From assembly GCF_000027125.1 (NCBI RefSeq), contig NC_017626.1: a stretch of 64,000 nt of DNA; one strand, written 5' to 3'. The first letter of the stretch is position 1, and every line of letters starts with the position of its first letter. Source of the DNA: Escherichia coli 042 (GTDB lineage: Bacteria > Pseudomonadota > Gammaproteobacteria > Enterobacterales > Enterobacteriaceae). Below are positions 15,001 to 33,000 of the stretch, piece by piece. The position numbers were made by a program.

Positions 15001-18000
15001 GGTTCTACCCCTGCGCAGGCCTGATAAGACGCGCCAGCGTCGCATCAGGCAACGACTGTCGGATGCGGCGTGAACGCCTTATCCGACCTACGGTTCTACC
15101 CCTGCGTAGGCCTGATAAGACGCGCCAGCGTCGCATCAGGCAACGACTGTCGGATGCGGCATATACGCCTTATCCGACCTACGGTTCTACCCCTGCGCAG
15201 GCCTGATAAGACGCGCCAGCGTCGCATCAGGCAACGACTGTCGGATGCGGCATATACGCCTTATCCGACCTACGGTTCTACCCCTGCGTAGGCCTGATAA
15301 GACGCGCCAGCGTCGCATCAGGCAACGACTGTCGGATGCGGCGTAAACGCCTTATCCGACCTACGGTTCTACTCCTGCGCAGGCCTGATAAGACGTGCCA
15401 TCGTCGCATCAGGCAAGACCGTATTAATTCGGCGTATAGCCCATTACCACGCCACTTAAGCCAGAAAGCTGCTTGAGCTCACTCAGCGATCCTTTCAGTT
15501 TCTCTTTGGAAGCATCAGGCCCAACCAGAATACGGGTAATTTTACCCTGCACTGGCGTGGATGGCGACGTATAAACCCGATAACCGGCACCGCGCAGCTT
15601 ACCGACAATCTCATTCACTTTATCGGCATTTTTCAGCGCGCCCAGTTGCACAACATAGGCTTTACCCGTTGGCGCTGCTTTTTCTTCCATGACCGGCTTC
15701 GGTTCTGGCTTCGGCGCAGGTGGTACTTCAACCTTCGGTTTAGGCGGCTCCACCGGTTTCGGCTTCGGTGGGGCGACCGGTGCAGGTTCCGGTTCAAACT
15801 CGGTGTTATTGGCTGCAATAGTGGCCGGATCGAGCGACGGTGCTGCGGCATCACCAGCCCGCACCTCTTCCGCTGCGCCTTCCGGCGGCTGCGTCGGCAG
15901 CGCCTGGGTGGCGGCTGGCATCATATCAGGCTCATCGCGATCGCCCGCTTTTGGCACCAGCGGGATAGCCGCGAACTCATCCTGATAATGTTTTTTCTGC
16001 CCGTCCAGCAGCCCTGGAAGTACAATCACCCCCAGCGCCACCAGCACGATCGTGCCCACTAACCGATTCTGAAACTTACTTGCCACCGCTTCTCCTCGCG
16101 TCAATCACTTCCATGACATGTGCGACCGTGTGGAACGAACCACACACCAGCACGGTATCTTCCGCTTTAGCGTCCGCCATTGCGGCATCCCATGCCTGCG
16201 CAACGCTATCAAATGATTTGCCGTTTCCCAAATGCTCAAGCAGTTGTTCTGCCGTGGCACCGCGCGGCCCTTCCAGTGGCGCACAATACCAGTCATCAAC
16301 CACGCTTTTCAACCAGGCCAGAGTTCCGGCAATATCTTTATCATGTAGCATACCGATAACCGCCAGCACGCGCCCGTTTTTCGGTAGCGCTTTCATACGC
16401 CCGGTGAGATATTCCGCCGCATGTGGATTATGCGCGACATCAAAAATAACGCGTGGCGACTCGCTCACAATCTGGAAACGTCCCGGCAAAATTGCGCTGG
16501 CAATCCCGTCGCGAATGGCATTTTCACTGACCTCCAGCCCGCTGGCACGCAGTGCCGCCAGCGCTGTTGCGGCATTCGGTTGCGGGACAAGCGGCAACGG
16601 CAGATTTTCCAGCGTGCCGTGAGCATCGCTAAACGTCCAGTCATGATCGGTGACGGAATAGTTCCACTCAACGCCCCGACGTTGTAACAGTGCACCTTTC
16701 TCCTGCGCCACATCAGCAATGGTAGAAGGCATTTCCGGCTCACCGACAATTGCCGGTTTTTCGCTGCGGAAGATGCCTGCTTTCTCGCGACCAATACTTT
16801 CGCGATCTGGCCCCAGCCAGTCGGTATGATCCAGCGCAATGCTGGTTACTATCGCGACATCAGCATCGACAATATTGGTTGCGTCCAGACGACCGCCCAG
16901 CCCTACTTCCAGAATCACCACGTCAAGTTGTGCCTGTTTGAACAGCCACAACGCCGACAGCGTACCGTACTCGAAATAGGTCAGGGAAATATCACCGCGT
17001 GCCGATTCAATCTCCGCAAAAGAGGCGGTGTGGGCCGATTCCGGCAATTCCTGGCCCTGCACACGTACGCGCTCGGTATAACGCACCAGATGCGGCGAGC
17101 TGTAGACGCCCACTTTGTACCCTGCCGCCATCAGAATCGACTCCAGCGTACGGCAGGTGGTGCCTTTGCCATTCGTACCCGCAACGGTAAACACAAATGG
17201 CGCTGGTTTCAGAACGCCAAGACGCGCCGCGACCTGGCTCACGCGCTCAAGGCCGAGATCGATAGTTTTACTGTGCAGGTTTTCCAGATAAGAAAGCCAC
17301 GAAGCCAGAGGCGACGCGGCTTGAGGAGTGCGTTTGATAATCATGGTATCCGCTGATTCGTTACGGTGAGAATAGCAAAAGGGCAGAGCCAGTGGCCCTG
17401 CCCTTATCAGTTATCAGGCCTCAGGTTCCTGATCAGGTACCGGGGGTACCACTACGCCTTCACGCGGCGCTTCAGGATTCGGCGCTGGCAGATTCATCAA
17501 CTTCGCCAGAATGCTCGCCAGTTTCAGGCGCATTTCCGGACGACGGACGATCATGTCGATGGCGCCTTTCTCGATCAGGAATTCACTGCGCTGGAATCCT
17601 GGCGGCAGTTTTTCGCGAACGGTCTGTTCGATAACACGCGGACCGGCAAAGCCGATTAACGCTTTCGGTTCAGCGATGTTGAGATCGCCCAGCATGGCGA
17701 AACTTGCAGAAACACCGCCCATGGTCGGGTCGGTCAGCACGGAGATGTACGGCAAGCCGCGCTCCTGCATTTTTGCCAGCGCCGCAGAGGTTTTCGCCAT
17801 CTGCATCAGCGACATCAGTGCTTCCTGCATACGTGCGCCACCAGAGGCGGAGAAGCAGATCAGTGGGCAGTTATCTTCCAGCGCCTGCTCAACGGCACGC
17901 ACGAAACGTGCACCTACCACAGACCCCATGGAACCGCCCATAAAGGCGAACTCGAATGCCGCAGCGACAACTGGCATTCCATACAGGGTGCCTTTCATCA

Positions 18001-30000: not shown

Positions 30001-33000
30001 CGGCAACGGAGGCGGTGTCTTCTTCTCAGGCTTTGTTGTTCCCGGTTTTGGAGGTTCAAACCAGCTTTGCAGTTCTGCCCCGCAACCATCGCCTGGTGGC
30101 GGTAAAGGTTGATCTTCACACTCCAGACTATCGGCAGGACAACGTAATCGTACATGCATATGCGCGCGATGCTGGAACCAGGGTCGCACTTTGCGCAACC
30201 AGTCGCGATCGGTGCCCGCATCAAGGCAAAGTTGTTGTTTAATCGCCGGATTAACAAAAATGCGCGTGACGTCTTTGTCCTGGGCGGCGAGTTTGATCAA
30301 GCTGAAAATTTCTGGCTTCCACAGCGTCGGAACAACGTGTTTACCGTCGCGGGAAACTAAATCTAACGCTTGCGGGCGCAAGAGCTGCGCGGAGGTCCAG
30401 CGTGTTTTTGGCAGTTGCAGGAAGATGTCCACATCCAGTCCGGTCTGGTGGCTGGCGTGACCGCCGTTGAAACGACCACCAGCAGGCATCCCCATATCGC
30501 CAATCAGCACCGTGCCCAAGCTCAGATTGCTCACCTGGCTACTCAGACGCTGGATAAACATCACCAGATCCGGGTGTCCGAAATAGCGACGCTGATCGGT
30601 ACGCATGACCTGATAATGTTCGGACTGTATCGGCAGCGTGTCAGCGCCGACGATACAGCCATTAGAAAAACTGCCTATCGATTGTGCGCTACCCGGCACA
30701 GGTTGGGTTATTTTTTGCCACGGCGTCGCTGCCAGGCTGGCGCTACTGGCAAGCAGGGCCAGCAGCGCAATCGCGGTTTTGTTCATTTTTTACCAGCGTG
30801 GAATATCAGTCTTCACATCGGCATTTTGCGCCCGCTGCCGTAACAGGTGATCCATTAAAACGATCGCCAGCATCGCTTCTGCGATCGGCACCGCACGGAT
30901 CCCGACACAAGGATCGTGACGGCCTTTGGTGATCATCTCAACTTCTTCGCCAAAGCGGTTAATGGTACGCCCTGGCACGGTAATGCTGGAGGTTGGCTTC
31001 AGCGCCATATGGGCAATGATTTGCTGCCCGCTGCTGATACCGCCAAGAATGCCGCCCGCATGGTTGCTCTGGAAACCGTCTTTGGTGATTTCGTCGCGGT
31101 TCTGGCTGCCACGCAGCGCCACCACGTCAAAACCATCACCAATTTCTACGCCTTTCACCGCGTTGATGCTCATCAGCGCATGGGCGATGTCGGCATCCAG
31201 GCGGTCAAAGACCGGCTCGCCAAGTCCGGCGGGGACGCCACTGGCAACAACGGTGACTTTCGCGCCGATGGAGTCGCCCTCTTTTTTCAGCGCGCGCATC
31301 AGTTCATCTAACGCGTCGATTTTGTCCGGGTCCGGGCAGAAAAACGGATTTTGCTCGACCTGCGACCAGTCTTTGATTTCCAGCGGAATGTCGCCCATCT
31401 GAGTCAGGCAGCCGCGAATCTCAATGCCAAATTTCTCGGCGAGATATTTTTTGGCAATCGCCCCCGCCGCCACGCGCATGGCGGTTTCGCGGGCGGAAGA
31501 GCGCCCGCCGCCGCGATAATCGCGCAGACCGTATTTTTGTTCGTAGGTGTAATCGGCATGGCCTGGACGGAAAACGTCTTTAATGGCGCTGTAATCCTGA
31601 GAACGCTGGTCGGTATTTTCGATCAACAAGCCAATGCTGGTGCCGGTAGTAACGCCTTCAAAAACACCGGAGAGAATTTTGACCTGATCCGGCTCACGAC
31701 GCTGGGTGGTGTAGCGCGATGTCCCAGGGCGACGACGATCAAGGTCATGTTGCAGGTCCGCTTCCGTCAGCGGAATGCCTGGCGGAACACCATCGACGAT
31801 GCAGCCGAGCGCCAGCCCGTGCGATTCGCCGAAGGTGGTTACGCGAAAGAGTTGTCCAATTGTGTTTCCAGCCATCACGGCTCCGTTATTGTTGTGTTTG
31901 CGTGTTTACTTAATCTTTATAAATCGCGAAATGTTCACGGGCCGCCAGCAGTTGCTCTTTGGTGAGCATAAACACACCATCGCCGCCGTTATCAAACTCC
32001 AGCCAGGTGAACGGAACATCCGGATATTGTTCCATAAGATGTACCATGCTGTTGCCCACTTCACAAATCAGCACGCCATCATCAGCGAGGTAATCTGCCG
32101 CGTTACCGAGAATGCGACGCGTCAGTTTCAGGCCGTCGGTGCCAGATGCCAGGCCCAGTTCCGGCTCGTGGCGGTATTCATTTGGCAGGTCGGACATATC
32201 TTCCGCATCGACGTACGGCGGGTTAGTGACGATCAGGTCGTACTGTACTTTCGGCAAATCACGGAACAGATCGGAGCGAATCGGGATGACGTTGTGGATC
32301 AGACCGTGTTCTTCGATGTTCTGTTCAGCAACCGCCAGCGCGTCGGGAGAGATATCCACCGCGTCAACTTCCGCATCCGGGAAGGCATAAGCACAGGCAA
32401 TGGCGATGCAGCCGCTACCGGTACACATATCTAAAATATGCTGCGGTTGCTTGCTGATAAGTCCGGCAAATTTATTGTTGATCAGTTCACCAATCGGCGA
32501 GCGCGGCACCAGCACGCGTTCATCGACGTAAAATTCATGACCGCAGAACCACGCTTTGTTAGTCAGGTAAGCCACCGGAATGCGTTCATTGACGCGGCGG
32601 ATCACGCGCTCAACAATACGGTGTTTTTCGCTGGAGGTCAGACGCGCGGTGCGCATATCTTCCGGGATATCCAGCGGCAGGTAGAGTGAAGGCAACACCA
32701 GTTGCACGGCTTCATCCCACGGGTTGTCAGTGCCGTGGCCGTACCAGATATTCGCCGCGCTGAAGCGGCTCACCGACCAGCGCAACATGTCCTGAATGGT
32801 TTGCAGCTCATTTACTGCTTCATCAACGAAAATTTTATCCACGTATTCCTCCAGGGCATGATCGCAATAATTTCGGCGGCTAGTTTGCCATGAAGATGAC
32901 GATAAATCAGCATTCACGCGCGGTGAGTGAGGAAAAATACGTTTAAAACGATCGATTGCGCTACGAGTCGGGTAAACTGTAGGAAAATTAGAAATAGAGA

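Follow-up and report, generated by a model that had tools for sequence, protein, structure and literature searches.

Gene calling by longest open reading frame (ORF) has a known weakness, namely the over-extension of genes across divergent promoters. A second well-described arrangement is that of overlapping coupled gene pairs, where the downstream start and its Shine-Dalgarno (SD) sequence lie inside the 3′ end of the upstream gene. Three genes within a 64,000-nucleotide stretch of the Escherichia coli 042 chromosome (the window, to which all positions refer) can be compared with these systems. The naive mnmC ORF enters the divergent promoter region between fabB and mnmC, and that of prmB the one between prmB and smrB. 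mnmC differs from the usual case in that a conserved part of the promoter doubles as the false start codon. The folC-dedD pair has the geometry of coupled genes and may be coupled; dedD also has transcription starts of its own inside folC.

The segment discussed is the part of the E. coli chromosome that reaches from dedD to smrB. All experimental start and transcript data considered here come from K-12, not from the window strain, to which it is 96.9% identical over the region. The window represents another E. coli lineage than K-12 MG1655 (identity to strain THO-008 is 99.0%), with no functional difference from MG1655 in the genes treated here. The starts, start codons and lengths of dedD (b2314, 220 aa), mnmC (b2324, 668 aa) and prmB (b2330, 310 aa) are identical in MG1655 and the window, as is the sequence around the starts (from −48 to +30 for mnmC and from −203 to +30 for prmB).

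Three GTG starts and their longer reading frames

An earlier note, made from the sequence, had placed the starts of dedD, mnmC and prmB at GTG codons at 16086 (− strand), 26166 (+) and 32842 (−), and these positions are exact to the base. In each gene the GTG directly precedes, in frame, the conserved N-terminal protein sequence. The extensions of 6, 20 and 111 codons that the note ascribed to longest-ORF calling were recovered both by reading the sequence and by script, and a naive ORF listing of the window gives the same longest ORFs. These GTG starts are already known, and ordinary: RefSeq PGAP and NC_000913.3 annotate exactly the same ones. The K-12 protein accessions now stand at versions.2 (DedD),.4 (MnmC) and.4 (PrmB), which shows that the records were revised, presumably including their starts.

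The interval has 18 annotated genes, and GTG opens four of them, dedD, pdxB, mnmC and prmB. Since GTG starts make up about 14% of the total genome-wide in E. coli, there is no enrichment in the interval (binomial p = 0.24). A naive upstream extension is found in 5 of the 18 genes; these include two genes with ATG starts that the note had not listed, accD (+28 aa) and aroC (+1 aa).

The comparison with orthologs covered 80 Enterobacterales loci, with 25 loci aligned for dedD, 77 for mnmC and 59 for prmB. A start codon is found at the aligned GTG in 25/25, 75/77 and 58/59 of them, respectively, so that the ortholog alignment proposed as a check agrees with the GTG starts. The codon itself is GTG in 72 of the 77 mnmC loci and ATG in one, while for prmB it is GTG in 36 loci, TTG in 18 and ATG in 4; the starts of the neighbouring ATG-start genes accD (40/40) and aroC (61/61) are constant. 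In 18 dedD, 19 mnmC and 26 prmB loci, the frame between the aligned codon and the stop upstream of it offers no other start. The upstream extensions contain stops or frame-breaking indels in other genera and lack third-position periodicity, and only the mnmC TTG is conserved among the upstream starts.

It is almost certain, then, that dedD, mnmC and prmB each initiate at the named GTG, and that the longer upstream ORFs are accidents of non-coding DNA or of DNA that serves another purpose. That the longest ORFs could instead be the real genes, starting at TTG 16104, TTG 26106 and ATG 33175 with 6, 20 and 111 additional residues, is scarcely credible. It is true that these frames are open both in the window and in K-12, and that public records contain proteins of 226, 688 and 421 aa. 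However, these extended versions are a small minority of public records, with 3, 6 and 13 contigs compared with at least 1000 for the 310-aa PrmB; a PrmB of 335 aa is also found in some records. The stops, the frame-breaking lengths and the lack of coding periodicity in the extensions also speak against it, and none of the tests proposed in the note favours longer N-termini, in line with its description of the extensions as spurious.

Coding-type codon periodicity, measured as the variability of substitutions at frame positions 1/2/3, starts exactly at the GTGs. This bears on the opposite possibility, that the true starts are further downstream at an internal ATG, with the GTGs internal or untranslated. 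ATG is the commonest start codon, and codon 19 of PrmB (Met19) is an in-frame ATG, which would be such a site. Nevertheless, third-position periodicity is present from codon 2, and the protein sequence is strongly conserved immediately past the GTG (across nearly all prmB loci, and as ASKFQNRLVGT in dedD). Moreover, the first 11 codons after the GTG of mnmC and prmB hold no start codon, while dedD has an in-frame GTG at codon 10. Together with DedD and MnmC peptides that begin at residue 1, these features leave downstream starts with next to no likelihood.

Published K-12 start-site data, which were also suggested as a check, bear out the GTG starts of two of the three genes. N-terminal peptides MASKFQNR and ASKFQNR are known for DedD, whose start is also supported by Ribo-RET and INRI-seq, and K-12 N-terminomics includes an N-terminal MnmC peptide with methionine at the GTG codon (PMC13245402 Table S1). 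Since an internal GTG is decoded as valine, methionine at this codon in the DedD and MnmC peptides requires that initiation takes place there, against what would be expected from the longest ORFs. No Ribo-RET peak for MnmC is present in the K-12 start-site table (PMC13245402 Table S1).

The dedD start within the end of folC

The dedD coding sequence (15424..16086, − strand, 220 aa) is supported by the sequence, the RefSeq and K-12 annotations, the K-12 peptides and the alignment. Its GTG (16086-16084) is followed by GCA AGT AAG TTT CAG (ASKFQ), and the gene ends at 15424. An SD sequence read directly from the window, GAGGAG (16092..16097, −), is located 5 nt 5′ of the GTG, within the final folC codons, and its GGAG core is retained at this spacing in most of the 25 loci. 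The folC stop codon TAA (16076-16078) leaves an overlap of 11 nt between the two genes (16076..16086, −), as read from the sequence, so that the GTG and the GAGGAG both fall in the 22 nt that end folC. With this arrangement, ribosomes begin the translation of DedD in the final stretch of folC. A FolC glycine codon, GGT, shares its middle base (base 2) with the first G of the dedD GTG. This constraint would disfavour a change of the dedD start to ATG.

The naive 226-aa ORF is opened by a TTG (16102..16104, −), seen in the ORF list and by script, with an in-frame TGA (16105-16107) immediately before it, and adds six codons (LTRGEA). The region upstream of dedD evolves as folC coding sequence only, its variability peaking at the third codon position of folC, and a dedD start is found at the position of the TTG in only 3 of the 25 other loci. 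In K-12, folC and dedD are co-transcribed, and the two dedD transcription starts (2431873 and 2431937) are both inside folC (PMC6131387). Both the GTG and the upstream TTG are thus on the dedD mRNA, and transcript data do not discriminate between the two starts.

The presence of the TTG on all dedD mRNAs is relevant to dual initiation, where the GTG would be the main start and a minor longer form would arise from this TTG at −6 or, in the case of prmB, from a GTG at 32917. A nearby alternative start has in fact been reported for aroC, as a form extended by 1 aa (PMC13245402 Table S1), and some annotations carry a 335-aa PrmB. By contrast, the N-terminomics table gives dedD and mnmC no start other than the annotated one, and the dedD TTG is preceded by only a GGAAG at 3 nt and is missing in 22 of the 25 other loci. 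Minor longer forms are very improbable on this evidence, to which the prmB transcript adds below.

The mnmC and prmB starts next to divergent promoters

The mnmC coding sequence (26166..28172, + strand, 668 aa), supported by the sequence, annotation, K-12 peptide and alignment, starts at GTG 26166-26168, which is followed by KHYSIQ. The naive ORF opens 20 codons earlier, at TTG 26106, for a total of 688 aa. An in-frame TTG at −20 codons is found in 45 of the 77 loci, which could be taken in favour of the longest ORF. However, this upstream TTG is interpreted as the −35 element of a conserved promoter and not as a start codon. Variability at the three frame positions is 0.190/0.138/0.307 downstream of the GTG and 0.226/0.375/0.259 in the extension, where in-frame stops occur in at least 10 loci.

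The mnmC promoter has the form of a sigma-70 promoter, TTGCGC-N17-TAAGAT, as indicated by conservation and by the K-12 transcription starts. Its putative −35 hexamer, TTGCGC (26106..26111, +), begins with the TTG of the naive ORF and has the K-12 starts downstream of it, and conservation points to TAAGAT (26129..26134, +) as the −10 hexamer. A TTGnnn at −60 with a TAnnnT at −37, separated by a 17-nt spacer, is in register in 56 of 75 loci, and such a pair is present anywhere within the 100 nt upstream in 73 of 75. The −10 hexamer varies between TAAGAT, TAAAAT, TATGAT, TAAACT and TACAAT, with T1, A2 and T6 constant. Transcription starts mapped from K-12 positions 2441738 and 2441741 are at 26140..26143 (+), that is, at −26 and −23 from the GTG and 6 and 9 nt past the −10 hexamer, according to published SMRT-Cappable-seq data (PMC6131387 Suppl. 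Data 2); the mapped positions are on C residues, 1-2 nt off the predicted A. A generic promoter and terminator scan of the fabB-mnmC divergent region gave no mnmC promoter, since the hexamers match just 7 of the 12 consensus positions and the threshold was 9/12.

Use of the TTG as the −35 hexamer explains its in-frame persistence across genera.

As the transcription starts are downstream of TTG 26106, this codon is not on that mRNA, which together with its role in the promoter counts against translation from it. The mnmC gene is monocistronic, transcribed from the conserved sigma-70 promoter with a leader of about 25 nt. A weak SD-like GAG (26155..26157, +) is located 8 nt 5′ of the GTG, and a GAG is found at 8-10 nt in 66 of the 77 loci; this weak SD, together with the GTG, would keep mnmC translation low. 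A possible regulatory hairpin in the mnmC 5′ UTR (GUAAG...CUUAC), noticed by eye, was rejected, as Salmonella and Citrobacter have changes that disrupt its pairing and are not compensated.

The prmB coding sequence (31910..32842, − strand, 310 aa) starts at GTG 32840-32842, followed by DKIFVDEA, as indicated by the sequence, annotation, alignment and codon periodicity. An SD sequence, GGAGG (32848..32852, −), is 5 nt 5′ of the GTG and is found in 42 of the 59 loci. The spacing of the ribosome-binding site, another of the proposed checks, is therefore in agreement for dedD (GAGGAG) and prmB (GGAGG), both at 5 nt, and marginal for mnmC, with only a weak match, GAG, at 8 nt. Variability downstream of the prmB GTG is of the coding type (0.037/0.031/0.254), and upstream it is flat (0.52/0.55/0.53).

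The spurious extension of 111 codons (32843..33175, −), identified by script, alignment, periodicity and the transcription start, begins at ATG 33173-33175 and also contains in-frame GTGs at 33103 and 32917. It spans the entire prmB-smrB intergenic region and continues for another 168 nt on the antisense strand of smrB (start at 33008, +), so that the naive ATG is antisense inside that gene, a further point against the longest ORF. A prmB start at −111 is found in 1 of the 59 other loci, and in-frame stops are found 5-15 codons upstream of prmB in 28 loci, 22 of them without an intervening start.

K-12 position 2448472, where the prmB-aroC-mepA-yfcA-epmC transcript starts, corresponds to 32874 (−) in the window, at −32 from the GTG (PMC6131387 Suppl. 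Data 2). The entire extension upstream of this point, including ATG 33175, is 5′ of the K-12 transcription start, and the ATG is thus not on that mRNA. Conservation and the K-12 transcription start point to TGGCAAACT (32882..32890, −) as a probable extended −10 promoter element for prmB, exact in 53 of 58 loci. Between 33 and 60 nt separate it from the prmB start codon, and some of these distances break the frame, not being multiples of 3. The generic promoter and terminator scan of the prmB-smrB divergent region (threshold 9/12) gave no prmB promoter. As first gene of the transcript, prmB has a 32-nt leader given by the TGGCAAACT extended −10 promoter, with the strong GGAGG 5 nt 5′ of the GTG. 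The 111-codon frame crosses the promoter and the smrB antisense strand. With regard to dual initiation, the in-frame GTG at −25 (32917) recurs in 5 of the 59 loci, but it is 43 nt upstream of the sole reported prmB transcription start, and its use would need a longer read-through transcript or one antisense to smrB.

PrmB is the weak point of the set, its GTG start being argued from comparative, SD and transcription-start evidence. No direct PrmB N-terminal peptide or start-site profiling record was found in the sources covered, among them the INRI-seq and Salmonella riboproteogenomics supplements, and a literature search for statements on the prmB/yfcB start codon gave nothing relevant. The PDB holds no PrmB structure, only that of the paralogue HemK, and hence gives no N-terminal information.

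Meaning of the GTG starts

The non-ATG starts of mnmC and prmB, which encode enzymes that modify the translation machinery, might be selected rather than merely tolerated, although this is doubtful. The basis of such a reading is the long retention of these codons (GTG in 72 of 77 mnmC loci, GTG or TTG in 54 of 59 prmB loci) beside the constant ATG of accD and aroC, and its model is infC, whose non-AUG start is sensitive to IF3. If it were true, a non-ATG start could keep MnmC and PrmB synthesis low or make it sensitive to the initiation apparatus.

Extended entries can mislead construct design, homology-based start calling, and the prediction of signals and topology in DedD, which is anchored in the membrane by its N-terminus. 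For teaching, mnmC offers a small case in which an apparent upstream "start codon", conserved and in frame, is actually a promoter −35 element. The result on the GTG starts matters solely as annotation hygiene: as the reference annotation and the published start-site data are already correct, the biology of these genes is unchanged.

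Start codons and annotation of dedD, mnmC and prmB

In dedD (− strand, 220 aa), GTG 16086 is followed by ASKFQ and the longest open reading frame (ORF) begins at TTG 16104; in mnmC (+ strand, 668 aa), GTG 26166 is followed by KHYSIQ and the longest ORF begins at TTG 26106; and in prmB (− strand, 310 aa), GTG 32842 is followed by DKIFVDEA and the longest ORF begins at ATG 33175. The earlier note had placed the starts at these GTGs and put the extensions at 6, 20 and 111 codons, and every number is borne out by direct reading of the sequence and then by script; an ORF listing yields the same naive ORFs. 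Precisely these GTGs are the annotated starts in RefSeq PGAP and in K-12 MG1655 (NC_000913.3). Thus, the finding is already known, since everything agrees fully with current reference annotation. The accession versions of the K-12 proteins (.2 for DedD,.4 for MnmC and.4 for PrmB) suggest that these records were corrected in the past. The relevance for annotation is a valid practical point, as naive products are present in public records: by exact look-up, the contigs carrying them number 3 for the 226-aa DedD, 6 for the 688-aa MnmC, 13 for the 421-aa PrmB, and 1 and 21 for 335-aa PrmB forms, against at least 1000 for the 310-aa PrmB. The 90%-identity protein clusters of DedD and MnmC also hold 422-aa FolC and 398-aa HemY sequences, respectively, which look like database clustering artefacts rather than biology.

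The region (window 15000-33500; dedD-folC-accD-dedA-truA-usg-pdxB-flk-yfcJ-fabB-mnmC-yfcL-epmC-yfcA-mepA-aroC-prmB-smrB) is matched on the E. coli chromosome in 5,425 of 5,426 complete genomes. It is closest to strain THO-008 (99.0% identity) and 96.9% identical to K-12 MG1655. Because the window does not differ from K-12 between −48 and +30 around any of the three starts, K-12 data can be transferred to it.

Conservation and transcription around the starts

Each N-terminus was placed by tblastn in 80 loci from different Enterobacterales species, anchored on FabB with 10-kb flanks and ranging from Escherichia to Yersinia, Edwardsiella, Morganella and insect symbionts. A start codon lies opposite the E. 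coli GTG in 25/25 loci for dedD (21 GTG, 3 ATG, 1 TTG), 75/77 for mnmC (72 GTG, 2 TTG, 1 ATG) and 58/59 for prmB (36 GTG, 18 TTG, 4 ATG). No alternative start precedes the upstream stop in 18, 19 and 26 loci, respectively, and in 17, 15 and 22 of these the stop falls within 15 codons; in one Escherichia genome (L002), a stop lies 49 codons upstream of prmB. A start is present at the naive position in 3/25 loci for dedD and 1/59 for prmB. The observation is confirmed, and the reading of the extensions as spurious is supported. Spacing of the ribosome-binding sites agrees for dedD (GAGGAG, 5 nt) and prmB (GGAGG, 5 nt), while mnmC has a weak GAG only.

The dedD GTG and its GAGGAG both lie within the last folC codons (...S-G-G-K-stop), with an overlap of 11 nt. 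Upstream, variability peaks at dedD-frame position 2 (0.322), where folC has its third codon position, so this stretch evolves as folC only; after the GTG, the peak moves to position 3 (0.301). In K-12, dedD is transcribed both from the accD promoters and from two sites within folC (PMC6131387), and as far as these transcripts go, a minor 226-aa form could also be made from the TTG. An ATG at the dedD start would change a FolC glycine to aspartate, because the opening G of the start codon doubles as the middle base of a GGT codon; this constraint may plausibly explain the use of GTG.

For mnmC, an in-frame TTG 20 codons upstream is conserved in 45/77 loci, which might at first seem to favour the extension. 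The TTG, however, sits in AAATTTGCgc, followed by a 17-nt spacer and a TAnnnT-type hexamer (TAAGAT, TAAAAT, TATGAT, TAAACT or TACAAT across loci). TTGnnn-N17-TAnnnT is in register in 56/75 loci and occurs anywhere within 100 nt upstream in 73/75. Within the extension, the second position is the most variable (0.375 vs 0.138 in the coding part), and in-frame stops occur in at least 10 genera. A second recurrent in-frame TTG, 34 codons upstream, lies within a palindromic region of the fabB promoter, which we take to be the putative FabR/FadR operator region. SMRT-Cappable-seq in K-12 maps the mnmC transcription starts to 2441738 and 2441741 (PMC6131387 Supplementary Data 2); they precede the GTG by 26 and 23 nt and follow the proposed −10 hexamer by 6 and 9 nt. 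Given this conserved arrangement and the downstream starts, the TTG was rejected as a start codon, being apparently a −35 hexamer that is not transcribed into this mRNA. The resulting short leader of ~25 nt, the weak GAG Shine-Dalgarno sequence and the GTG start would together give low translation.

The prmB-aroC-mepA-yfcA-epmC transcript has one start in K-12, 2448472, which precedes the GTG by 32 nt (SMRT-Cappable-seq; PMC6131387). The putative extended −10 element of its promoter, TGGCAAACT (window 32882-32890, −), lies 7 nt upstream of this start, and 53/58 loci carry an exact copy. Depending on the locus, the element is 33 to 60 nt away from the start codon, and the upstream stretch is incompatible with a reading frame because some of these lengths are not multiples of three. 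Variability is likewise flat upstream (0.52/0.55/0.53 for positions 1/2/3) and takes the classic coding signature after the start (0.037/0.031/0.254). In-frame GTG 32917 and ATG 33175 are both upstream of the transcription start, and the ATG is 168 nt into smrB, which runs on the other strand. The strong GGAGG is kept in 42/59 loci. It goes with a non-ATG start codon, which is GTG or TTG in 54/59 species. Conservation and K-12 transcription starts together point to these mnmC and prmB promoters, which a generic promoter scan did not call. The K-12 smrB starts from the same method are at 2448581 (~32983, +), 25 nt upstream of its ATG, and at 2448220 (~32622, +), inside prmB, so the longer smrB leader would cover the 5′ part of prmB in antisense.

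GTG usage and other genes of the window

Roughly 14% of E. coli genes start with GTG. In the interval of the earlier note, 4/18 annotated genes do so (dedD, mnmC, prmB and pdxB at 22253), which is no enrichment beyond chance (binomial p = 0.24); in the whole window, 5/46 mappable genes do. pdxB (22251-22253, −) has no naive extension, and of 57 loci, 49 have GTG at its start and 8 have ATG; a K-12 N-terminal peptide at the GTG has Ribo-RET and INRI support (PMC13245402 Table S1).

Naive extension is not confined to GTG genes. The longest accD ORF (18328-18412, −), absent from the earlier list, gains 28 codons from in-frame ATG 18412; 40/40 loci have an ATG opposite the annotated one, and only 8/40 carry a start at −28. 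Of its K-12 transcription starts, 2433972 is downstream of the upstream ATG and 2434014 is 4 nt upstream of it (PMC6131387). aroC (31873-31878, −) has a tandem GTG-ATG start, and its naive ORF is one codon longer, starting from GTG 31878; codon −1 is GTG in 39/61 loci, and K-12 N-terminomics lists both the annotated-start peptide and a form extended by 1 aa (PMC13245402). For hisJ (~10799-10826, −), the THO-008 RefSeq annotation is 9 codons shorter than usual; the window has CTG at that position and the expected ATG 9 codons upstream, so the short form looks like an annotation or mutation issue specific to THO-008.

Elsewhere, tRNA-Arg(CCT) (50933-51007) is followed by ORFs of 2036 aa (52023-58133, −) and 518 aa (58907-60463, −). 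In THO-008, the place of 50933-60463 is taken by one 2637-aa phase-variable autotransporter, UpaE, of which the window counterpart may be a variant or split copy. Several THO-008 yfc fimbrial genes do not map to the window.

N-terminal peptides and the meaning of the non-ATG starts

K-12 N-terminal peptides were taken from Table S1 of the TRAINSPOTTER N-terminomics paper (PMC13245402). These include MASKFQNR and ASKFQNR at the annotated dedD GTG (2431684) and a 22-letter MnmC peptide at GTG 2441764. They settle both starts, because methionine arises at GTG only via initiation, whereas an internal GTG gives valine. Start-site data from ribosome profiling, proposed earlier as a check, bear out DedD (Ribo-RET and INRI-seq) and not MnmC, for which there is no Ribo-RET peak. 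PrmB is absent from Table S1, and a literature search found no direct protein or start-site record for it. Selection may be keeping the mnmC and prmB starts non-ATG, either to hold expression low or to make it sensitive to the initiation apparatus; this is unlikely to go beyond ordinary tuning of expression.
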